From Escherichia phage vB_EcoM-pEB20: a stretch of 64,000 bases of DNA. The stretch lies in sequence record OP114733; one strand, written 5' to 3'. The notes under the pieces are model-generated. The model made no database searches, was not told where the DNA came from, and saw only the letters and a program-made list of their open reading frames with translations. This document shows positions 7,700 through 45,431 of this stretch, piece after piece (position 1 is the stretch's first letter; the number at the start of each line of letters is the position of its first letter). Position numbers and translations under genes: made by a program.

Positions 7700-9682
7700 T
7701 TAGGCACCTACAGCACCAATTAGTTCGTCGAAATCGGCACCCGTTGCTGTTGCTACAAAGTTCAACGTAATATAATTTATCGATCTCGCAGGTTGTAAGT
7801 AGAAAGTAGCTACAAATTCATTACGGTCTATAACTGCTGGTGTGTTATTGGTAGTATCACAAACAACTTTAAAGTTATATACACCACCGAGAGCTTTAAT
7901 ACCCTGTAGATATTGAGAAGTCTCTGTACGGAAAGAAGAACGGGTAAACGCGTTGTTCAATTCAAACAGGCGATATTTGGATGCTGAACCAATGTTCGTT
8001 TTAACCATATTGAACAAACGACGAACGTTAATACGGTCAAATGGTGAAGGAACAGAAGTGGCAGTTTTATCACCGTACAGAACATACCCATCACCACCGG
8101 TACCAGTAACAGGGTTAATAGCTTCCTGATACAAACGATCACGCTGCGCTTGGCGAGTTTCAATTGCAAGCTTAATAACGTTAAGAATTTGTCCACGGTT
8201 ATAACCGGCAGGAGACATCCAAGGCTGAGAAATATTGTCTGTGCGAGCACAAAGACCGGCAATATCAGCAGCTAATGGAACCCAACGATTCACGTCATTA
8301 TATTTGTCATATTGATATTTATAGTTACCGTCAATAGCAGCATAAGTAGAACTTACATTAAAGTTATTATCAGTGTAAGTTCCTGATGCAGTACGCCAAT
8401 CAACCAGATTATCAACTGCACGATTAACAGGAATACCGACTATAGTTGCACGTGGTGGTGAGCAAAGAACCAAGCAATCTTGGCGAGAATCACCAATTGC
8501 TACAACATGTTTCTGAACTGTAGAAGCAACTTCTAAAGATTCACCTGCACAAGAACCAGCAATAAACAACTGCGCATTAACAGATTCGCGGTCAGCAAAC
8601 AAATCCCAAGCTTCCATTAAATCACCAGCGTCAACCGTTTCATTAGATGATAAGCCACCACCCAGTTTGATTACGCCAGAGAAACCTTTTGGCCAACCTT
8701 GTGCAGTAGCGAAAATATAATTGCTTGCGCCTTTAGCAAAGAAATCATCAATAAAGATATTACTACCATAAATATCGCGTTCACCGCGTTTAGTAGAAAG
8801 AACTACACTCTGGACTACAGCATCGTTACGACGAACGATAATTGCATATTGGTCATCAGACTGTGGGCCATATCCAAAGATTGCTTTAGCAGTAGATGCA
8901 CGAGTACCACCATCAGGATAAATTTTTAACTGGGCTGAAGCACCTTTGTCATAGTCTGCTTTAGATACGATTTCAATTTCGAGCTGGTCGCCAAGTTCAC
9001 CAGGATAAAGAGCAACTACGCCCGGGACACCATATTTTTTAATAGATTCTTGGAAAGTTAGAGAAGTAATAGCTTCTTCAGAAGTTTCAACTTCAGTTAA
9101 CAGAATACCCGAATCGGTTACGATAGAACCAATTGTAATAACGCCAGAGAGACCAGAAGAAGAACTGGCAACTTCGGCGGTCCAGTTAGAACCCAATGCC
9201 GGATATTCATTAATTTCTTTTGCACGAGCAATAATTTTACCGGTTGGGATATAAATGTTAAGAATTTTACCATCGACATCAACCGAAGTGACATAACCAT
9301 CTGCTTCAACAGTTTCGGTCAAATACTTAACGATAATTTTATCACCAACTGCATAGTTACTACCAGCAGCAGAGATTGTGAATTCAATATTGCCTGCTAC
9401 AGGAGATGAGTTCTTAGCAGTATCACGGTCAACTGCGCGTACAACACGAAGGTCATTACCATATTGAAGGAAGTTCATAGCAGACATGAAATAATCTGCT
9501 GTATCCGTATTAGGAGTACCAAACATATCAACTAATGCAACTTCATCAGTGATTTGTTTAATCTGGAATGCAGGTCCCCATTGGAATTTTCCAGCCAGGG
9601 CAGCAGTACCAGTGGAGTTATTAACTACAGTACTCTGTACGGTAGTTTCTTTGAGCTCAACGCCCGGAGAGAGAAGTGCCAT
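7700..9682 (-). CDS. 18: tail sheath protein gp18
   Basis: 660 aa; length and order match T4 gp18. Confidence 0.9.
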   Translation of the reverse strand: MALLSPGVELKETTVQSTVVNNSTGTAALAGKFQWGPAFQIKQITDEVALVDMFGTPNTDTADYFMSAMNFLQYGNDLRVVRAVDRDTAKNSSPVAGNIEFTISAAGSNYAVGDKIIVKYLTETVEADGYVTSVDVDGKILNIYIPTGKIIARAKEINEYPALGSNWTAEVASSSSGLSGVITIGSIVTDSGILLTEVETSEEAITSLTFQESIKKYGVPGVVALYPGELGDQLEIEIVSKADYDKGASAQLKIYPDGGTRASTAKAIFGYGPQSDDQYAIIVRRNDAVVQSVVLSTKRGERDIYGSNIFIDDFFAKGASNYIFATAQGWPKGFSGVIKLGGGLSSNETVDAGDLMEAWDLFADRESVNAQLFIAGSCAGESLEVASTVQKHVVAIGDSRQDCLVLCSPPRATIVGIPVNRAVDNLVDWRTASGTYTDNNFNVSSTYAAIDGNYKYQYDKYNDVNRWVPLAADIAGLCARTDNISQPWMSPAGYNRGQILNVIKLAIETRQAQRDRLYQEAINPVTGTGGDGYVLYGDKTATSVPSPFDRINVRRLFNMVKTNIGSASKYRLFELNNAFTRSSFRTETSQYLQGIKALGGVYNFKVVCDTTNNTPAVIDRNEFVATFYLQPARSINYITLNFVATATGADFDELIGAVGA

Positions 9683-38070: not shown

Positions 38071-38298
38071 ATGGCTAAAGTTAGTATTGATGTCGTTGAT
38101 TATGAATACACTGAAGAAGTTATTCGCAACCGTCACCCTGAAGTTCGTATCGATTCAGTCCAAGATTCCAAGTTCTGGACAACCGAGCTTAATCTGAGTG
38201 GTCCTTATGAAGCTGTTAAGAAGTTCATGGTTGAAGAATACTGCGAAGGCATGCACCCCGAAGACGCCAAGTTTTATGTCAATTTGATTAAAAAATAA
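38071..38298 (+). CDS. hypothetical protein
   Basis: 75 aa ORF. Confidence 0.5.
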   Translation: MAKVSIDVVDYEYTEEVIRNRHPEVRIDSVQDSKFWTTELNLSGPYEAVKKFMVEEYCEGMHPEDAKFYVNLIKK

Positions 38299-38368: not shown

Positions 38369-38962
38369 ATGAACACACTGAAGAAACTTGTTGAATTCAT
38401 CCGCACTAAACTGGGTACTGCTATGGCTAAAAATCTGACTGTCGAAGAACAGTATAACGCAGCTGCAGATAAGTTGATTACCCAAATCAAAGAACTAAAA
38501 ACAGCTTCTGTTAAATCTATTAATGAAGAAAAACGTATTCGCGAACTTGTTAATGAAAAGAACAAGCAAGCCGCTTCTAAGGAACGTGAAATTCGTAAGC
38601 TCTTGGCTGAAGGACAAGATGTTACCATGCATGCTAAGCTTGGTCTTCTGTATCGTCGAACTGCCGAACAACTTAATACAAAAGCTGACGGATATGCCGC
38701 TATGCGAATTGAAATTGCTCGTAAGGTGGTTGAACTTGACGATGCTCGTCAGAACCTGGCAATCAAACTCGAATACATTCGTGAAACTCGAGCAGCCAAT
38801 GCCCTTGGTATCTCTACGGCCGATGATGTAATTGAAATCGCTGCACTGACTAAGGTTGATATCGAAGACACTCTGACTCGTGTTGAAACGTTCAATGGCA
38901 CTCCAGTCGGCGTCGAAACCACTTCTGCTGATGTACAAGAATATATTAACTCTTTGAAATAA
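38369..38962 (+). CDS. coiled-coil protein (possible PspA/IM30-like fold)
   Basis: about 197 aa of heptad-like helical sequence. Confidence 0.5.
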
Positions 38963-38968
38963 AATAAT

Positions 38969-38990
38969 ACGGAGGACTCCGGTCCTCCTT
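38969..38990 (+). terminator. rho-independent terminator
   Basis: ggaggac-tccg-gtcctcc followed by TTTT. Confidence 0.65.
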
Positions 38991-39011
38991 TTGGATAATA
39001 AAGGAGTTAAC

Positions 39012-39614
39012 ATGCGAAACCAAAATAATGATATTGACTCAATGTTCGAAGAGTTCCGAGATAAGGTAAATCCACCTACGTCTTTAGTTGATTCATTACG
39101 ATATGTTGCAACCGGACGTAAATGGTACTGGTCGTCTTCTTATGAGACCGCCGAGAAAACGGCTAGCCATAGCAGAAAATCTTTATTAGCCCCAGGTATT
39201 ATGATTCATGATATCGGAGCTATTGCTAAACTAGTTGCAGACCATGATATTAGATTCACTGATTTCGTTGCTCCTACGTGGTCTGTTTGTTGTTTAAACA
39301 CTGAATGGGAATATATCAGCGAACGCTCTGAAGATTATTATGGTTTTAGAGATAAGCTTCTGAGGTCTAATATGTTTTATATCGATACAGAAGTTCTAGT
39401 CGATAATAAAAAATATTACTTTACGTTAATCATCGATTCTGAAACTATGTATGAAGGCAAGCCTTTGCTTAAAAGAGTTGATGCTTTAAGTGCTATTGAT
39501 GCGCTTTATGAAACTATGGTTGTTAGTCCTAATTTCACTAACAATTTAATCCTTGAGCAATTTATTATGGAATGTAGAGAATATGTCAAAGCCAACCCTA
39601 TACATGCCAAGTAA
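39012..39614 (+). CDS. hypothetical protein
   Basis: ATG MRNQNN after AAGGAG; C-terminus contains EQFIMECREY. Confidence 0.55.
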   Translation: MRNQNNDIDSMFEEFRDKVNPPTSLVDSLRYVATGRKWYWSSSYETAEKTASHSRKSLLAPGIMIHDIGAIAKLVADHDIRFTDFVAPTWSVCCLNTEWEYISERSEDYYGFRDKLLRSNMFYIDTEVLVDNKKYYFTLIIDSETMYEGKPLLKRVDALSAIDALYETMVVSPNFTNNLILEQFIMECREYVKANPIHAK

Positions 39615-39978
39615 GCCCTGGGCATACGAATACAAACGTAAATTAATCCCAAATGAAGTACTATTTGGCCCTATTTTAGCTTTAGCATTTTTAATCTTTA
39701 TGATTATAGGAGCTATTTTAGATTCTAGTGAAGTTATATCGTCTGATGCAGTGTTTTTACTTATTATAGTCGGGTCGTTTATTGTGCCATTTTTATTAAT
39801 GCCTATTAATTGGGTAGGATATTGGCACCAAGGCCGTCATCACAGAGCCCGATTAAGAGAATGGAAAGTTCAGTGCGCAAAAGCCCAAGCTCAGTATGAT
39901 GAAGCTGTTAAAAAGTATGAATATGAAGAAGCTATGGAATTCGTTAAGGAAATAAGATGCAAAAGCCTCAACTCTTAA
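39583..39978 (+). CDS. membrane protein
   Basis: two hydrophobic helices; C-terminal EFVKEIRCK. Confidence 0.5.
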   Translation: MSKPTLYMPSKPWAYEYKRKLIPNEVLFGPILALAFLIFMIIGAILDSSEVISSDAVFLLIIVGSFIVPFLLMPINWVGYWHQGRHHRARLREWKVQCAKAQAQYDEAVKKYEYEEAMEFVKEIRCKSLNS

Positions 39979-40316
39979 CCGTATGGCCTTCTCTTGGTGA
40001 GAACATTCTAATTTTTATTATGAGTATTGGCATGGGATTTGCCTTTGGATTAGTTGGATTTCTTATTGACGGCGTTGTGTTAGGATTTATAGGGAACACT
40101 GGTGGATTCACAGACCAATGGCAGGACTTACGATATACTCAAGCCTTTGCATCCATTGCATCATTTTGTACTATAGTCTATTTTTACTACGATTTTATAA
40201 ACCATAACAAGAAAAATAAAAAGGTTTACGCTTCTCAAATGATTAGTTATAATGAACTCCTAGCTAGACGTGAAAATGAAACAATCGAAAACTTTATTAA
40301 GGAATGTAGAAAATGA
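39957..40316 (+). CDS. membrane protein
   Basis: 119 aa, two transmembrane helices; C-terminal ENFIKECRK. Confidence 0.55.
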   Translation: MQKPQLLTVWPSLGENILIFIMSIGMGFAFGLVGFLIDGVVLGFIGNTGGFTDQWQDLRYTQAFASIASFCTIVYFYYDFINHNKKNKKVYASQMISYNELLARRENETIENFIKECRK

Positions 40317-40618
40317 GTAAGATTATTGAAATTAAAGTACCAGAGTTTAATGATGCCAAATCCGCTTCAGATGCAATTTATAAACTTCTGAATCAAGCTG
40401 AACGTATCGAAGAAGAAGCAACAAAGATCGCAGACCAATATGCCGTATCATTTTCTGTAGGTGATTATGGTAGCGGTCGTACTTATTATCCTAAGGGTGA
40501 AATCGTATCCCAGTGGATGAAAGATGAAATTGAAAATAATGGTGGCGATGTTAAGCGTGAAGGTAATGGTTACGTTATTACTGAAGGTGCTTGGGTTTCG
40601 TCTTCTGCGTTGTGCTAA
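40313..40618 (+). CDS. small protein, GWVSSSxxC family, paralog 1
   Basis: 101 aa ending GAWVSSSALC. Confidence 0.55.
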   Translation: MSKIIEIKVPEFNDAKSASDAIYKLLNQAERIEEEATKIADQYAVSFSVGDYGSGRTYYPKGEIVSQWMKDEIENNGGDVKREGNGYVITEGAWVSSSALC

Positions 40619-40627
40619 GGAATCATT

Positions 40628-40900
40628 ATGTCTAAAGAACAAACCGAACTGGCTGAAGCTGTAGCAAAAATCTATGCAGCTATTGAGGCTGCCAAAGAAA
40701 TTGCTGATAAACAAAACACAACATTCGACTTGTACCCAGCTTATGGTATGGGTGGAACCTATCATTCACCCGGACATCTTAAAGCCGATCTTGAACGTTG
40801 TACAAAAAACGGCTATGCTGAATGGGCTGACGTTTACCAATACGACTACAACCTGAGCCTTGAAGATGGCGGTTGGGTTGCATCTTCTCACACTTGCTAA
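40628..40900 (+). CDS. small protein, GWVSSSxxC family, paralog 2
   Basis: 90 aa ending GGWVASSHTC. Confidence 0.55.
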   Translation: MSKEQTELAEAVAKIYAAIEAAKEIADKQNTTFDLYPAYGMGGTYHSPGHLKADLERCTKNGYAEWADVYQYDYNLSLEDGGWVASSHTC

Positions 40901-40909
40901 GGAAACAAT

Positions 40910-41107
40910 ATGTCTCGTGAATTAGATTGTGCTGTACGTACGGCAGTAGCTGCTCTGGAAAACCTGTTCCAAATTGCAACAGAAGAACGCGAAGAAGTTA
41001 CATTATGGATTGAAGATAACGCAGGTCTGAATCTCCAGGACGCGATCTCATTATCCCACAATAGTATCACTGTTCAAGGCTGGGTATCATCTAGTTATTC
41101 TTGCTAA
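40910..41107 (+). CDS. small protein, GWVSSSxxC family, paralog 3
   Basis: 65 aa ending QGWVSSSYSC. Confidence 0.55.
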   Translation: MSRELDCAVRTAVAALENLFQIATEEREEVTLWIEDNAGLNLQDAISLSHNSITVQGWVSSSYSC

Positions 41108-41111
41108 AACA

Positions 41112-41140
41112 GTTTACAACAAGATAGGGCTATGTTATAG
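41112..41140 (+). promoter_or_regulatory. early promoter in stem-loop cassette (PeSL-like)
   Basis: GTTTACA; inverted repeat atagggcta/tagtcctat around the -10. Confidence 0.45.
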
Positions 41141-41169
41141 TAGTCCTATCAAAACAAATGGAGTCCACA

Positions 41170-41409
41170 ATGATTTATTACGAAAGTATCGGAACCAAAG
41201 TGGTTGGTAAAACCATTACTCGTGAAAAGTTTGCAAAGATATTCGATATGCGTTATAAAAAATCTGAACACAAAGGCATCCGATTCGAAGATGCGCACTG
41301 TACAATTTGCCCTTATAATGAAGACATAAACGGTACAATCGTTCCATTGGTAGAGGCTTCACATGATGACCTCTGGGATGAATATGATATCGCATGTCGT
41401 GAAATTTAA
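41170..41409 (+). CDS. hypothetical protein
   Basis: ATG MIYYESIG after AAATGGAG. Confidence 0.5.
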   Translation: MIYYESIGTKVVGKTITREKFAKIFDMRYKKSEHKGIRFEDAHCTICPYNEDINGTIVPLVEASHDDLWDEYDIACREI

Positions 41410-41437
41410 GTTAATGAATTAATCCGAGGAAAATATT

Positions 41438-42394
41438 ATGATGTTGGTTATTGGTTCTCGTGCACTTCACTATCACGGTCTTATTGATTCTAGCGCTATT
41501 AAAAATAGTGATTGGGACTTTATTGCGGACCAATGTTCTTGGAATGCATTCAAAAATCAAATGATGGGTGTATATGTTCACCAAGATAACCCTGATGTCC
41601 AAGTTTTCAAATGCTTCCATAATGGACGCGAAACTCATTTTGAAGCATATATTGTTCCGGCAATCACTAATGTCCGTGAATTAGTCGGTGAACTCACTCC
41701 TGAAGATTTCACGTCTTCTTATGACCTTTTAAAATACGCCAAGAAAAATTTGACTAAAGACCGTTTGAACGGGTTTTACTGGGCAACTCCTGAGATATGT
41801 CTTGCAATTAAGATGTCTCATCGTTTCAAGAAAAATAATCCATTCTTTTTAAAGACTATGAACCATATTCAGTATCTTCGTGGTAAAGGTGTTACACTGG
41901 ACGATGAACTTACTGAAATTATGCTGAAACGCCAGAAAGAAACCTTGAATTATGCTCACCCAGTTCTTGACACTTCTAAAAGTGCGTTCTTTAAAGATGA
42001 CATCTATACATATGACCATGATACTATTCATGAAGCCATTGCACTAACAGACCGTCCAGCGTATACATTTTACATGAAAGATGGTTCTGAAGTCATGACC
42101 TCACGCGAGAAGTTCGAATCATTACCAGAAATGGTCAAATTGGCTGGTGTATACGAAGAATCATGTGTACTAGCGTTAGAACGTTCTCAGATTCCTAATA
42201 ACTTTGAAATCCATCCACGTGATAGTTTTATGATGGCTCTTGAAAAGGTCTGTACTTCAATCACATCAGGTTGGTTCCGTGAATACGCCTGGGAAAACCA
42301 CAGCAAAGTAGTAAGTATGTACCAAAGCTTAGGACATGACGATTACGTCAAACGTTTCAAACAAAATTTCCATATGGTAAAACCTTTCAAATAA
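41438..42394 (+). CDS. hypothetical protein with weak nucleotidyltransferase-like N-terminus
   Basis: 318 aa; N-terminal GS...DWDF resembles a GS-x-DxD motif with non-canonical spacing. Confidence 0.5.
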   Translation: MMLVIGSRALHYHGLIDSSAIKNSDWDFIADQCSWNAFKNQMMGVYVHQDNPDVQVFKCFHNGRETHFEAYIVPAITNVRELVGELTPEDFTSSYDLLKYAKKNLTKDRLNGFYWATPEICLAIKMSHRFKKNNPFFLKTMNHIQYLRGKGVTLDDELTEIMLKRQKETLNYAHPVLDTSKSAFFKDDIYTYDHDTIHEAIALTDRPAYTFYMKDGSEVMTSREKFESLPEMVKLAGVYEESCVLALERSQIPNNFEIHPRDSFMMALEKVCTSITSGWFREYAWENHSKVVSMYQSLGHDDYVKRFKQNFHMVKPFK

Positions 42395-42406
42395 TTTCGC
42401 AAAACT

Positions 42407-42436
42407 GTTTACATCTTGATAGGACTATGTTATAGT
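42407..42436 (+). promoter_or_regulatory. early promoter in stem-loop cassette (PeSL-like)
   Basis: GTTTACA; ataggacta/tagtcctat inverted repeat. Confidence 0.45.
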
Positions 42437-42464
42437 AGTCCTATTAAAACATGAGGAGAATATT

Positions 42465-42770
42465 ATGAAATTAGGCGAAACCAACCGAATTGGTCTTTTA
42501 ACAATATTTGTATCACTTTTTTACGCAGCTCTTTCTGTTGCAGTATTACAAAAGGCTTACAGTATGGATGGTGTTCCTGGTTTTGTATTCTTATCGCCGT
42601 TTTTGCTATTCGTTGGAGCATTGTTATTATATGCCACGACTAGTTTCGACCATAATGTCTGGGTCAATTATAAATGTAAATTGTCTGAAGAAGAACACGC
42701 AGAAGCTCGTAAAAAAGCTATTGAATCTACCAATCTAGAAAATTTCATTAAAGAATGTCGAGGAAAATAA
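42465..42770 (+). CDS. membrane protein
   Basis: 101 aa, two transmembrane helices; C-terminal ENFIKECRGK. Confidence 0.55.
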   Translation: MKLGETNRIGLLTIFVSLFYAALSVAVLQKAYSMDGVPGFVFLSPFLLFVGALLLYATTSFDHNVWVNYKCKLSEEEHAEARKKAIESTNLENFIKECRGK

Positions 42771-42771
42771 T

Positions 42772-43458
42772 ATGAATAGTTCTAAAGTGTTTAATAGTCA
42801 AGCTCGTGCAGTAGGTGGTTTTGCTCATGCGATTAAAAATGACCAGATTAAAAACGAGCCTATGTTCTTTAACTGCGATTTGAATTTTGCTTTTGATAAT
42901 GGCGGCCCAATTACTCGTAGCTTTATCCAAAATCTTCCTGACGATTGGAAAGACTCGGATGTAGTATTTGATTCACGAGTCCACATGTTGATGCCTGGTT
43001 GGTATCCTGCTATCCCAGGTTATCACCATGACGATGTACCACGCCCGGATATTCCGGTTGGTCAACATTTTATTACTGCAGGACAACCTGACTATGACAA
43101 CCCTCGTTACCATTCTGAACATATTCTTGGTCTTGTTAACGCTGATGTGTGTCCTACTCATTTTGCAACAGGAACTGCAGAGTTCAGTCAGATTCCTGAT
43201 GGCGAACTTATCTATCGCCAGTGGCACAAAGAAGTCCTCGAAAAAATTGAAAAAGGTGAACTAGAGAAATGGGAAGCTCCAGACCGTACTCTTCTTCAGT
43301 TTGATTGGCAAACATGGCACACTGGCTCTCATGCAATTAGTAATGGATGGCGTTGGTTCGGACGTGTATCTCGTAATACAGACCGAGTTAAAAAGATTAC
43401 CAATGAAATTCGTGTCAATGCTCAAGTTTATCTGGAATTCCCTATGGAAGGCTGGTAA
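42772..43458 (+). CDS. hypothetical protein with His/Asp cluster
   Basis: 228 aa; segment HMLMPGWYPAIPGYHHDDV could be a metal site. Confidence 0.5.
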   Translation: MNSSKVFNSQARAVGGFAHAIKNDQIKNEPMFFNCDLNFAFDNGGPITRSFIQNLPDDWKDSDVVFDSRVHMLMPGWYPAIPGYHHDDVPRPDIPVGQHFITAGQPDYDNPRYHSEHILGLVNADVCPTHFATGTAEFSQIPDGELIYRQWHKEVLEKIEKGELEKWEAPDRTLLQFDWQTWHTGSHAISNGWRWFGRVSRNTDRVKKITNEIRVNAQVYLEFPMEGW

Positions 43459-43949
43459 TGATTAACAAAACATATTGGTCTAATATTGACGACGGCAATG
43501 AAGGTATTTCGTACTATTCAGTGGATTGGACAGGATGTCCATCCTACTTAGTGAAACATATTTGCCAAGAATTTAAAATCGACCAGCCAGCAGGTATTAT
43601 TGTGAACAGATACATTAATGGATATCAACCTATCGATGAAGTAATACGAACAACTCAAGCTGAGCTTGAAAAGTTTTTCAATAAGTGCCAATGGATAACA
43701 GGATGGATTATATTTGTACCGTCGGTATGGTTTTTTAGTACTAAGGTGAGTTCTTTCGGTTTTGTTGATATTACTGCTATCTTATTAGCATCTAGTATCA
43801 TAAGTGTTGTTGGTGGCATCATTGGCGGCGGTGCCGCCGCTATCATTATTAATCTTATTAAAAGTAGTTTACAAGAACGTAAAGACAAGATAAAAGCCAA
43901 GAATAATGAAGTTGAACGTTTTATTACCGAATGCAGGAATTTGAGATGA
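43458..43949 (+). CDS. membrane protein
   Basis: 163 aa with hydrophobic core; C-terminal ERFITECRNLR. Confidence 0.55.
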   Translation: MINKTYWSNIDDGNEGISYYSVDWTGCPSYLVKHICQEFKIDQPAGIIVNRYINGYQPIDEVIRTTQAELEKFFNKCQWITGWIIFVPSVWFFSTKVSSFGFVDITAILLASSIISVVGGIIGGGAAAIIINLIKSSLQERKDKIKAKNNEVERFITECRNLR

Positions 43950-44182
43950 GTATAGCAATTTACATTAAATCAGAATCATGTGATAGTTATCTGTACACAT
44001 ACGATAAAGATGTGTCAGAAGAAAAAATCAAAGACGACCTTAATATGGACCTTGATATGTTCTGTCCTATTGCAGATTACAAACTTGCGGTCTCTAATAG
44101 TGAAAGTCCATCTAAAGAAACGCGCATTGAAGAATTTATGTCCGAATTAATGGCCAAATCATGGGACCGAGATGATGAGTAA
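43946..44182 (+). CDS. hypothetical protein
   Basis: ATGA overlap with upstream stop; about 78 aa. Confidence 0.45.
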   Translation: MSIAIYIKSESCDSYLYTYDKDVSEEKIKDDLNMDLDMFCPIADYKLAVSNSESPSKETRIEEFMSELMAKSWDRDDE

Positions 44183-44630
44183 GAAAAATAAAGTGAAAGA
44201 ACTATCAGCCGGTATTATTTTCCTTACCGAAGATAAAGAATTATTCATGGGGCGTGTAACTGGTTCTCGTCCTAAAGGTTCTTTAGCTCATCGGTGGGAT
44301 ATTCCTAAAGGACGTGTCGAGCCCGGTGAATCTCCTATTGAAGCCGCTATTCGCGAATGCGAAGAAGAAACTGGGTTTACACAATATGACCCTGCCTTCC
44401 TGAAAGACCTAGGTGAACATCATTACTCAGACAATAAGAATATTCATCTGTTCCTATATACCATCCCTGTAGAGCACGAGCAATTCAGAAACAGTGTTTG
44501 TAATTCCTATCATACATTCCCAGACGGACGACAGATTCCTGAATTTGATGCATTCGCTTTAATTAAACCTTCTCAATGGGAATATGTAATGGGCAAATCA
44601 TTATATAGGGTGCTCACTACCCTCCTATAA
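44172..44630 (+). CDS. nudE: Nudix hydrolase NudE (e.1)
   Basis: Nudix box GRVEPGESPIEAAIRECEEETGF; adjacent to lysozyme e. Confidence 0.85.
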   Translation: MMSKKNKVKELSAGIIFLTEDKELFMGRVTGSRPKGSLAHRWDIPKGRVEPGESPIEAAIRECEEETGFTQYDPAFLKDLGEHHYSDNKNIHLFLYTIPVEHEQFRNSVCNSYHTFPDGRQIPEFDAFALIKPSQWEYVMGKSLYRVLTTLL

Positions 44631-44638
44631 GTAATAAA

Positions 44639-44662
44639 TACCTCCTATAAACATGGGAGGTA
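44639..44662 (+). promoter_or_regulatory. stem-loop sequestering the lysozyme ribosome-binding site
   Basis: tacctcc-tataaacatg-ggaggta pairs the SD GGAGG 5 nt before the e ATG. Confidence 0.6.
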
Positions 44663-44664
44663 TT

Positions 44665-45153
44665 ATGAATATATTTGAAATGCTTCGTAATGACGAAGGT
44701 CTTAGACTGACTTTATACAAAGACACTGAAGGCTTTTGGACGATTGGCATCGGCCATTTAGTAACAAAGAACCCGTCTTTAGCCGTAGCTAAAGCTGAAC
44801 TTGACAGAATGATCGGTCGTAAATGCAACGGTACAATTACCCTTGATGAGGCTGAAAAGCTATTTAATGAAGACGTTGATAAAGCCGTCCGCGGAATCTT
44901 GGGTAATGCTAAACTTAAACCGGTATATGATTCTTTAGATGCGGTTCGTCGATGCGCATTGGTTAATATGGTCTTCCAAATGGGTGTATCAGGCGTCGCC
45001 GGTTTTACTAATTCTCTTCGTATGCTTCAACAGAAACGTTGGGATGAAGCGGCAGTAAATCTAGCCCAATCTAAATGGTATCGTCAGACACCTAATCGTG
45101 CGAAACGCGTAATCTCAACATTTAAAACAGGAACTTGGAAAGCGTATATATGA
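44665..45153 (+). CDS. e: lysozyme (endolysin) e
   Basis: [32 protein letters not shown] matches T4 lysozyme; 162 aa by coordinates. Confidence 0.95.
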
Positions 45154-45431
45154 AAACATATAGTGAATTTTTATCAGAATCTATTCTTAACGAAGCTACT
45201 GACACATTTGCAACTAAGCTAGGTGCAGCTTTGGTTGAAGCTGAAAGTCTATTAGCACGTATTTCTGAACTTGCTAGTAAGATAGATACTCGCAAATTTG
45301 AACGTACCAGCGATATCGCTAAGCTTGAAGCCTTGTTACGTATGTGCGATAAACCGGAAGAAATCGCTAAGAACGGCTCGCTAATGAAACAACGTCTTGA
45401 AAAATATATTTCAGGCGCTTCGGAAAAATAG
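45150..45431 (+). CDS. internal protein with capsid-targeting sequence
   Basis: N-terminus [10 protein letters not shown]; ATGA overlap with e stop. Confidence 0.65.

Follow-up and report, generated by a model that had tools for sequence, protein, structure and literature searches.

Five genes of Escherichia phage vB_EcoM-pEB20 encode proteins that end in variants of one short peptide, which reads E-N-F-I-K-E-C-R in two of them. All five lie between positions 39012 and 43949 of the 64,000-nt stretch of sequence record OP114733 analyzed here (the window). The recurrence of this C-terminal motif is not a matter of chance, and the tail is under selection as a peptide. From sequence comparisons, we give a probability of about 0.6 to the reading that the tail is a portable cytoplasmic docking helix, and that its overlap with the ribosome-binding site (RBS) of the next gene and its part in recombination are secondary. 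That the tail docks, and what it docks to, we infer from the pattern as a whole. As far as the databases and literature searched show, this tail module was previously unannotated.

Five Genes of the e-segB Cluster End in Variants of One Peptide

Comparison with annotated relatives and with the reference records of T4 and RB69 placed the motif-bearing genes in the ‘e-segB’ early-gene cluster. Positions 38900–44700 are approximately 96–98% identical to RB69-like (Mosigvirus) coliphages, and the encoded proteins exactly match Escherichia phage vB_EcoM-pJBB/pEB20 entries. The gene order is e.6, e.5, e.4, e.3, an RB69-type insert that includes ORF133c (40313–43458), e.2, ORF130c, nudE (44172) and the lysozyme gene e (44653). 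RB69 has the same order, as does T4 minus the inserted block, so that T4 e.3 directly adjoins e.2. All tail-bearing genes of the window occupy the conserved position between e.6 and nudE/e.

A preliminary description of this DNA had reported five genes with a near-identical C-terminal peptide. All five open reading frames (ORFs) are as described, with e.4 carrying a degenerate form of the peptide (Table 1). Four of the five had been called small membrane proteins, and we found hydrophobic hairpins in four and none in e.5. In the six-frame translation of the window, the strict pattern ExF[IV]xE[CI]R occurs 4 times, each time no more than 11 codons from a stop. The pattern [FW][IVL]xxC[RK], when placed within 17 residues of the ORF end, is found in 4 of the 234 ORFs of the window, and all 4 belong to the e.5–e.2 cluster. 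Shuffling the residues of each ORF gave a mean of 0.2 matches in the same scan, with a maximum of 2.

Each of the five proteins matches its own PHROG (2607, 2604, 2330, 2203 and 9798) with end-to-end coverage; none has a match in local Pfam or NCBIfam libraries. Identities to the T4 orthologs are 47% for e.5, 51% for e.4 and 36% for e.3. Searches with tblastn found e.3 in 692 phage records and ORF133c in 149, all of the latter being of Mosigvirus type, the group to which ORF133c is confined. ORF133c also has a weak match to the e.2 family (phrog_2203), over the C-terminal half of that family. A word-indexed homolog search with e.3 and e.5 returned near-identical sequences only. The e.5 query found 2 loci among viral contigs and just 3 proteins in an exhaustive representative search, and for that last reason we regard the e.5 subfamily as narrow at the single-sequence level. 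The public names of the tail bearers in the databases consulted are ‘hypothetical protein’ or evident mis-annotations; we treated ‘sulfurtransferase’, ‘host specificity protein’ and ‘dolichol-phosphate mannosyltransferase subunit 3’ as automatic mis-annotations. Literature searches on the e.x genes returned nothing relevant.

The Tail Is Conserved as a Peptide

For consensus and codon information, we anchored 24 tails at their aromatic residue. The consensus, with the number of tails given after each residue, is hydrophobic(-3)-x-x-[F22/W2]-[I17/V6/L1]-K18-[E16/G4]-C19-[R22/K2]. Third codon positions hold 0.45–0.98 bits of information, compared with 0.94–2.0 bits at first and second positions. 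The arginine is spelled aga, agg, cga, cgt or cgc, and F is swapped only for W. Even the identical ENFIKECR peptides of e.3 and ORF133c are spelled differently at 4 of 8 codons. Because third positions drift, arginine spans both codon families and F alternates with W, selection must be acting on the amino acids. The codon comparison speaks strongly against a nucleic-acid signal. The DNA consensus put forward in the preliminary description, gaa-aay-tty-att-aar-gaa-tgt-mga, suits e.3 and ORF133c, but the other tails use different codons.

The soluble proteins found at the e.5 position in different genera fall in PHROGs 2607, 8788, 13418 and 16253. Because these PHROGs cross-match, we consider the proteins to be members of one ancient, very divergent family. 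In an alignment of 12 of them (12–48% identity), the F and C of the tail are the sole invariant residues besides Met1. Judged from this alignment, the tail is the most constrained part of e.5, and its invariant cysteine hints at a specific contact.

The rest of each protein was compared separately. With the last 25 residues removed, the bearers fell into separate sets by BLAST, and the only cross-family matches were weak ones between transmembrane (TM) segments. When profiles of the e.4, e.3, e.2 and ‘small’ families were compared with hhalign, tails included, the probability was 93–96% in 3 of 6 pairs and 27–87% in the others, and the matches covered the last 15–43 columns only. Without the tails, no family pair exceeded 15.5%. 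By these measures, the shared element is a C-terminal module on bodies that are not detectably related. The idea of a membrane protein family sharing a cytoplasmic tail, as first proposed, is correct with regard to the tail, which is selected as a peptide and is cytoplasmic by the positive-inside rule (see below). It fails with regard to the bodies, which are not detectably related by hhalign and BLAST, and several bearers are soluble. The N-in/hairpin/C-in layout is common to all four membrane proteins of the window; e.5 has no hydrophobic segment.

The Tail Is Spread across T4-like Phages

Searching T4-like genomes for the tail turned it up in ten sampled genera, that of T4 included, at 2–6 copies per genome; only in Serratia phage WSPA has it degenerated. 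The ends of T4 e.5, e.4 and e.3 are ...EKFVKECREYVKAITIPSK, ...MKFVKESRCKSQS and ...KEFVIDCRKIK, respectively. A scan of all 806 six-frame ORFs of the whole T4 genome (168,921 bp) found the cysteine-containing C-terminal motif only in e.5, e.3 and the remnant of e.2. A looser pattern adds e.4 and two junk frames, and the four real matches are within approximately 1.8 kb beside gene e.

We then fetched the e.6–nudE interval from other T4-like genera and tabulated the C-terminus of every gene. Tails occur in Mosigvirus, Tequatrovirus, Gaprivervirus, Dhakavirus, Marfavirus, Winklervirus, Karamvirus, Roth21, Biquartavirus, Pseudotevenvirus RB43 and probably Ceceduovirus, and every tail gene lies between e.6 and just past nudE. 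There are 4 tails in SP18 (Gaprivervirus), 3–4 in Dhakavirus FB and dhaeg, 5 in Klebsiella Marfavirus F48 (for example EEFIKHCREAVNG, NSFIKYCRGKHVS and NWIKGCRK), 4 in Serratia Winklervirus X20 and 6 in Karamvirus EnC07. Klebsiella phage Roth21 has 5, one of them on a soluble protein just beyond nudE. The tail of Aeromonas avDM5 (Biquartavirus) reads ELFVDYCRR, and that of RB43, LEKFIHSCKK, lies 24 residues before the end of its protein. Tails are probably present in Aeromonas CC2 (SFVNYC, SFVDYC). The soluble bearers are the e.5 superfamily, F48_94, EnC07_113 and Roth21_102; by tblastn, the small F48_94 belongs to a Marfavirus-restricted family.

We also back-translated [FW][IV]K[EG]CRK-stop with an ATGA overlap and scanned a viral contig collection. 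Of the 23 matches, 12 were in real ORFs, all of them T4-like membrane proteins. Ten of the remainder were chance frames of 9–23 codons, and one was a real e.3 tail cut by the end of the locus.

The Tail Is Predicted to Be Helical and Cytoplasmic

The hydrophobic positions -3/0/+1/+4 fit an amphipathic helix. The helical hydrophobic moment of the tails is 0.26–0.69, which is above the beta-periodicity value in 11 of 13 tails. AlphaFold models, both of low confidence and built on shallow alignments, have a helix at residues 179–194 of e.5 (predicted local distance difference test, pLDDT, 59; predicted template modeling score, pTM, 0.62) and a short terminal helix at residues 110–118 of e.3 (pLDDT 52). 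Periodicity and these models together suggest that the tail is helical.

The four membrane proteins have a short N-terminus bearing K/R, a hydrophobic hairpin with 0–1 K/R in the loop between the TM segments, and a C-terminal segment with 8–11 K+R. In the e.2 homolog, a soluble N-terminal domain precedes the hairpin and the cytoplasmic tail. This distribution of K+R indicates an N-in/C-in topology with the tails on the cytoplasmic side. By the positive-inside rule, the tails are thus predicted to be in the same compartment as the soluble e.5. The five window tails and that of T4 e.3 have a net charge of -1 to +1 and contain several Glu, and seven tails elsewhere have +1 to +4. Mean core hydrophobicity of the five window tails is -0.38 to +0.03.

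A Proposed Docking Helix and Its Candidate Partner

We propose that the tail is a portable C-terminal module of approximately 10–20 residues, hydrophobic(-3)-x-x-[F/W](0)-[I/V](+1)-K-[E/G]-C(+4)-[R/K](+5), that would form a short amphipathic helix. It is carried by the ancient soluble e.5 family, by several small hairpin proteins of the membrane, among them e.4, e.3, e.2 and ORF133c, and occasionally by a small soluble protein. The helix would act as a common docking tag, with its L/F/I/C face binding one shared cytoplasmic partner, which could be either a phage protein, e.6 being the obvious candidate, or a host protein. Docking would bring the soluble and the membrane-anchored bearers to one common target, or to one another. 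We favor this reading because the tail combines a small L/F/I/C face with near-neutral charge in the window and T4 tails, is cytoplasmic, sits on unrelated bodies encoded in one operon at 2–6 copies, and is the best-conserved feature of e.5. Because the early operon is tightly packed, the tail codons inevitably fall over the start of the next cistron. Synonymous positions and the choice between K-E and K-G now serve to spell the Shine-Dalgarno (SD) sequence of the next gene, and the repeated tail-plus-start junctions supply short homologies for duplication or deletion of whole genes.

The candidate partner e.6 is a protein of 197 aa found in 1101 phage records, with a homolog as distant as that of RB43 (31% identity). 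Its gene immediately precedes the tail-bearing gene of the e.5 family in all genera examined. It had no match in Pfam, and none in PDB with either the single sequence or a 6-sequence profile. By eye we saw a likeness of e.6 to PspA/IM30, which we dropped as an identification for want of a Pfam or PDB match and retain as an analogy only.

Several observations weigh against the docking reading. Model confidence is low (pLDDT 59 and 52), and a fold search added no information. The nomination of e.6 is based on adjacency and co-occurrence only, and the protein has neither a cysteine nor a recognizable domain. In Serratia phage WSPA, where e.6 and e.5-like genes persist, the tail survives in degenerate form only (IIHQARTRV). 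I, V, M or S replaces the cysteine in the e.4 family and in a second small membrane family (X20_109, EnC07_120 and Roth21_108), so the cysteine is not universally required and the bearers may differ in role; outside the window, e.4 family members have V, M or S at this position. The hhalign comparison used small family alignments of TM-rich sequences and could have missed a genuine deep paralogy of the membrane bodies. Finally, the sampled junctions are partly orthologous, and the SD statistics given below are therefore not independent data points.

The gp45 sliding clamp offers a precedent, since C-terminal docking tails that bind it are common to several T4 proteins (gp43, gp33 and gp55). 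As with those tails, a short C-terminal peptide on unrelated phage proteins is much better conserved than the bodies that carry it, presumably with many clients for one partner. The F-I-K-E-C-R consensus differs from the hydrophobic clamp-binding tail, however, and its bearers are small early proteins encoded in one contiguous cluster. Small two-TM anchors that recruit a soluble helical partner by a cytoplasmic tail are known from LiaI/LiaH and from PspB-PspC/PspA. By analogy, the all-helical soluble e.6 is encoded beside N-in/C-in hairpin proteins that may present their cytoplasmic tails in a similar way. Unlike those partners, e.6 matches neither PspA/IM30 nor any entry of Pfam or PDB in sequence, and we treat the parallel as a lead only.

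The T4 genes e.2–e.8 have no assigned function, although T4 is among the best-studied viruses. One peptide tag common to three to six proteins per genome ties such genes together functionally, from coliphages to Aeromonas phages and RB43, and e.4, e.3, e.2, soluble e.5 and possibly e.6 may together make up a single system at the inner surface of the host membrane. A more elaborate version, which we regard as speculative and unlikely as a whole, would make the e.6-to-nudE interval a ‘tail-addressed’ accessory array. One hub, e.6 or a host protein, would read the F-I-K-x-C-R helix, and a junction cassette of approximately 45 nt, made up of tail codons with the RBS and start of the following gene, would give any gene that acquired it by recombination both operon translation and recruitment to the hub. 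Gene capture, expression and targeting within the cell would thereby be coupled in one short element. The array would be a coding counterpart of the shuffling by promoter-early stem-loop (PeSL) cassettes discussed below, with the cysteine in a specific, possibly covalent, metal or redox contact.

Overlap with the Start of the Next Gene

The preliminary description had placed the motif directly over the SD and start codon of the downstream gene, often as an ATGA or TAATG overlap. All five window junctions do have the downstream ATG close to the end of the arginine codon (at -1, +2, +4, +8 or +10 nt), but ATGA overlaps occur only at e.3 and e.2. The ORF133c junction reads TAA-T-ATG, and those of e.5 and e.4 are long overlaps of 32 and 22 nt. 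At the first of these, the e.4 ATG (39583) lies 4 nt past the arginine codon of e.5. Of the first 21 junctions tabulated, 11 have the ATG exactly +2 nt from the arginine codon (..C-R-K-stop, spelled xxA-ATG-A). Positions +2/+3 of the motif are always SD-like in this class (AAGGAA, AAAGGA, GAGGAA or AAAGAG). With a more distant start, these positions instead read AAACAT, AAATAT or ACCGAA and the SD is located past the motif.

Pairing with the anti-SD sequence is -3.3 to -6.1 kcal/mol at the five window junctions. For the SD of e.3, the value is -6.1 kcal/mol compared with -2.7 for synonymous respellings. Across 34 junctions, the best pairing has a mean of -6.1 kcal/mol, as against -3.2 for codon-usage-weighted synonymous respellings. 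This bias at synonymous sites indicates that the free positions of the tail are used to build the next RBS. The non-tail genes of the same operons are packed equally tightly without the motif, so the overlay is what any C-terminal motif here would meet. Coupled overlapping cistrons are common in T4 early operons and look much the same, with stops and starts that overlap or abut, the SD in the last upstream codons and SD-biased synonymous sites. This arrangement is generic, however, and leaves the recurrence of the same peptide unexplained.

The GAA-TGT codons create an out-of-frame ATG-TAG minimal ORF in the tails of e.5 and e.3 (39572–39577 and 40304–40309). The corresponding ATG of ORF133c begins a frame of 6 codons whose TGA stop overlaps the next start. 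The ATG-TAG minimal ORFs are probably incidental. An alternative ATG at 43931 likewise arises from the Glu-Cys codons GAA-TGC of the e.2 tail.

Duplicated Junctions, a Deleted Gene and a Broken Gene

The e.5/e.4 and e.4/e.3 junctions are homologous DNA over approximately 45 nt, a stretch that takes in the opening four codons of the following gene (M-S/Q-K-P), and differ by a 5-nt insertion or deletion. The latter accounts for the degenerate, frame-shifted tail of e.4, in which Ile stands in place of the Cys and a Cys follows two residues on. Phage FB, which lacks e.4, follows the SP18 e.5/e.4 junction up to the ATG and the e.4/e.3 junction thereafter. From the sequences, this loss fits an unequal crossover between the repeated junctions. 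In T4, e.2 has two in-frame stops within its second hydrophobic segment (NC_000866, locus 1989–2461 minus; genome 140229–140420). The in-frame remainder downstream still ends in NNFITECRKLK-stop over the start of nudE.

A recombination or translational-coupling junction, as suggested in the preliminary description, is therefore real in its effects: the SD is embedded (-6.1 compared with -3.2 kcal/mol), junctions are homologous, and FB has lost e.4 between them. Nucleotide conservation cannot explain the motif, however, because arginine codons vary, F and W alternate, third positions drift and the place of the SD, within or after the motif, differs from case to case. The RBS overlap and the recombination thus follow from a peptide module in a tightly packed operon; they did not cause it. 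One set of codons serves both a selected peptide and the next ribosome-binding site, and repeated junctions mediate cassette turnover in a hyperplastic region.

PeSLs are promoter-early stem-loop cassettes that mediate the shuffling of modules in T4-type genomes (PMC2839356, PMC4122927). Their early promoter consensus is TTTACW-N17-TAYWAT, with an adjacent stem-loop (PMC4122927). Like PeSLs, the tail junctions are short sequences repeated where genes meet in hyperplastic parts of T4-like genomes, and they are tied to gene gain or loss (e.4 of FB; the duplicated junction). PeSLs are intergenic and non-coding, whereas all five tail motifs are C-terminal and in frame inside ORFs, and the tail junctions are conserved as amino acids. 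A promoter and terminator scan found PeSL-like cassettes elsewhere in the window and none on the tails. Two such cassettes, at 41108–41150 and 42398–42450 (scan sites 41113–41141 and 42408–42436), are near-identical direct repeats flanking ORF135c–ORF134c. Both have TTTACA-N17-TATAGT, an upstream TG, an overlapping stem-loop (ATAGGRCTA...TAGTCCTAT) and then a strong SD, and they match the T4/PST type of PMC4122927. The tail junction behaves like a shuffling site but is not a member of the PeSL family.

The comparisons suggest three annotation corrections. There are two candidate starts for e.4, ATG 39583 and ATG 39604. The upstream one gives the N-terminus MSKPTLYMPSKP, 10 of 12 residues of which are identical to that of T4 e.4, and the overlapping frame of e.5 is less conserved than this N-terminus. 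For this reason, the RB69 and ST0 annotations of e.4, which use the second ATG, are probably too short. T4 e.2 would be annotated as a broken gene. The annotated start of T4 nudE (MQEIKM...) uses the ATG formed by the Glu-Cys codons GAA-TGC of the tail, and the real start may be the second Met.

Alternative Explanations for the Tail

The tail could be a relic of tandem duplication, in which the membrane proteins and the C-terminus of e.5 came from one ancestor and the tail was kept for a reason internal to each protein, such as self-association of the hairpin. Deep paralogy of e.4 and e.3 is in fact likely from their sequences, because their cytoplasmic segments match as profiles over all 43 columns, they share the N-terminus M-[S/Q]-K-P, and their junction DNA is homologous. 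T4 e.3 and e.4 also align end to end at 21% identity. The homology of the e.5/e.4 and e.4/e.3 junctions down to the next four codons, the common layout of the four membrane proteins and the weak match of ORF133c to the C-terminal half of e.2 all point in the same direction. Such a history does not account for soluble bearers with unrelated bodies (the e.5 superfamily, F48_94, EnC07_113 and Roth21_102), nor for the tail being the most conserved feature of e.5 even across RB43 and the Aeromonas phages. A mere remnant would not remain invariant while the bodies diverge beyond recognition, and we consider a relic unlikely, if not strongly so. We think it very unlikely that the conserved element is the junction RNA or DNA itself, as an initiation or coupling region or a PeSL-like recombination linker, with the peptide an incidental by-product. 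At every junction the SD of the next gene does lie within the motif or directly behind it, synonymous sites are biased toward SD pairing, FB has a junction-to-junction deletion, junction duplication is seen, and the broken e.2 of T4 keeps its tail in frame over the nudE start. Third codon positions are nonetheless the least conserved, arginine switches between AGR and CGN, and TTY alternates with TGG. The position of the SD varies relative to the motif (K-E, R-G-K or R-N codons), and in RB43, EnC07 and e.5 the motif precedes the stop by 10–26 residues and is separated from the next start by up to 65 nt. Non-orthologous tails of the window are exactly identical over approximately 10 nt at most, and PeSLs, being intergenic cassettes of promoter plus stem-loop (PMC4122927), are unlike the tail junctions.

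Other explanations retain the peptide and give it a different role. A cysteine flanked by Arg/Lys might be a metal ligand, a redox or thiol-switch residue or a modified residue, possibly linked to the W-x-SS-x-x-C-stop paralogs described below or to the Nudix hydrolase. The cysteine is invariant in 12 of 12 e.5-family members at 12–48% identity and present in 19 of 24 tails, which is unusual for a purely hydrophobic contact, and a second set of paralogs in the same interval ends in an invariant terminal Cys. It is replaced by I, V, M or S in two membrane families, as expected of a position on a hydrophobic helix face, and the motif has no second ligand residue. With 2–6 copies per genome there is no fixed stoichiometry, and T4 keeps the tails but lacks the W-x-SS-x-x-C-stop genes, ORF132c and ORF134c; chemistry at the cysteine as the basis of the tail is thus quite unlikely. 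We find it more doubtful still that the tail is a membrane-targeting amphipathic helix in the plane of the inner leaflet, comparable to those of MinD and FtsA, that brings e.5 to the membrane and pins down the C-termini of the hairpin proteins. A C-terminal position, an amphipathic moment of 0.26–0.69 and the predominance of membrane proteins among the bearers are consistent with this role. The mean core hydrophobicity is near zero or negative, though, the hydrophobic face has just three or four residues, and in the tails of the window and of T4 e.3 a charge of -1 to +1, together with several Glu, would seem unfavorable for anionic lipid, seven other tails being at +1 to +4. A lipid-binding helix fits the pattern less well than a docking helix. 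It is hardly credible that the tail acts as a nascent peptide in the exit tunnel, modulating termination and promoting re-initiation at the overlapping AUGA. The motif is exactly one codon before a start-overlapping stop in 11 of the first 21 junctions tabulated, but its distance to the stop ranges from 0 to approximately 26 residues, and the e.5 family, with the best-conserved motif, never has it at the stop. We know of no resemblance of the tail to known arrest peptides.

Some likenesses to known motifs were considered and dropped. The e.3 tail resembles the ‘epsilon’ enhancer of T7 gene 10 (AACUUUA...AAGGA), a likeness set aside because other tails spell the same peptide with different nucleotides. 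A likeness to the gp21 cleavage motif (I-x-E) and to the T4 capsid-targeting sequence was rejected on location and protein class. The capsid-targeting sequence of T4 internal proteins is of the type MKTYQEFIAE and is N-terminal on proteins packaged in the head. The tail motif is C-terminal on early membrane and soluble proteins, and we judged its F-I-x-E resemblance to be coincidental. A true N-terminus of the capsid-targeting type is present on a separate internal-head-protein gene at 45150–45431.

Table 1. Genes, C-terminal tails and SD sequences of the e.6–e.2 region of the window.
Feature	Position	Strand	Description
e.6 homolog	38369..38962	+	phrog_1203; all-helical, not a tail bearer; context and candidate partner
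e.5 homolog	39012..39614	+	phrog_2607 (2.5e-95); precomputed PF26876 tag; 200 aa, soluble; ends ...LEQFIMECREYVKANPIHAK-stop
e.4 homolog	39583..39978	+	phrog_2604 (5e-62); 131 aa, predicted N-in/C-in hairpin membrane protein; ends ...MEFVKEIRCKSLNS-stop
e.3 homolog	39957..40316	+	phrog_2330 (5.2e-50); 119 aa, predicted N-in/C-in hairpin membrane protein; ends ...IENFIKECRK-stop
RB69 ORF133c homolog	42465..42770	+	phrog_9798 (8.8e-68); 101 aa, hairpin membrane protein; ends ...LENFIKECRGK-stop
RB69 ‘e.2’ homolog	43458..43949	+	phrog_2203 ‘membrane protein’ (7.5e-54); 163 aa; ends ...VERFITECRNLR-stop
e.5 tail	39546..39578	+	L-I-L-E-Q-F-I-M-E-C-R; core F-I-M-E-C-R at 39561–39578
e.4 tail	39937..39963	+	E-F-V-K-E-I-R-C-K; degenerate, Ile replacing Cys
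e.3 tail	40287..40310	+	E-N-F-I-K-E-C-R
ORF133c tail	42738..42761	+	E-N-F-I-K-E-C-R; same peptide as in e.3
e.2 tail	43914..43937	+	E-R-F-I-T-E-C-R
SD for e.3	39946..39951	+	AAGGAA; Lys-Glu codons of the e.4 tail; ATG 39957, overlap 22 nt
SD in e.3 tail	40299..40304	+	AAGGAA; serves ATG 40313 (ATGA overlap)
SD after ORF133c motif	42760..42765	+	GAGGAA; serves ATG 42772 (TAA-T-ATG, 42768–42774)
SD at e.2 tail	43935..43939	+	AGGAA; serves ATG 43946 (ATGA overlap)

Neighboring Genes and Elements

Three tandem paralogous genes for small soluble proteins (phrog_899) follow e.3 at 40313–40618, 40628–40900 and 40910–41107. All three proteins end in W-V-[S/A]-S-S-x-x-C immediately before the stop, and the genes are parted by conserved 9-nt spacers (TAAGGAAnCAnT before the ATG). 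This cysteine-terminated family has 2–6 copies in SP18, FB, F48, X20, WSPA and EnC07 and is absent from T4. The RB69 reference splits the counterpart of 40313–40618 into ORF139c and ORF138c (RB69 locus 7735–8041), where the window has one intact ORF of 101 aa. By this comparison, the RB69 reference probably carries a frameshift or a sequencing error.

Within the same insert, the ORF134c homolog (41438–42394, 318 aa) matches DUF7277 and DUF7275 (E = 1e-27 and 4e-78) and is kept in most T4-like genera examined, T4 itself lacking it. The ORF132c homolog (42772–43458, 228 aa) has a C-terminus, GRVSRNTDRVKKITNEIRVNAQVYLEFPMEGW, that is near-invariant out to Aeromonas CC2 and Serratia WSPA. No Pfam or NCBIfam match was found for it, and its HHDD...H...R pattern may point to a metal-dependent enzyme.

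A terminator-like hairpin at 38971–38988 (GGAGGACTCCGGTCCTCC, then TTTT) lies between e.6 and e.5. A promoter-like TTTACG-N17-TATAAT (10 of 12 matches) at 40225–40253 is inside e.3, 34 nt upstream of the e.3 tail. This site may be an internal early promoter that serves the paralogs downstream, or it may have arisen by chance, the scanned region having 33 promoter-like sites compared with 19.7 expected. As in RB69, the frd.3 homolog (38071–38298; Pfam Phage_FRD3, E = 1e-38) has the tRNA region on one side and e.6 on the other, and is not beside frd as its T4 name would imply.

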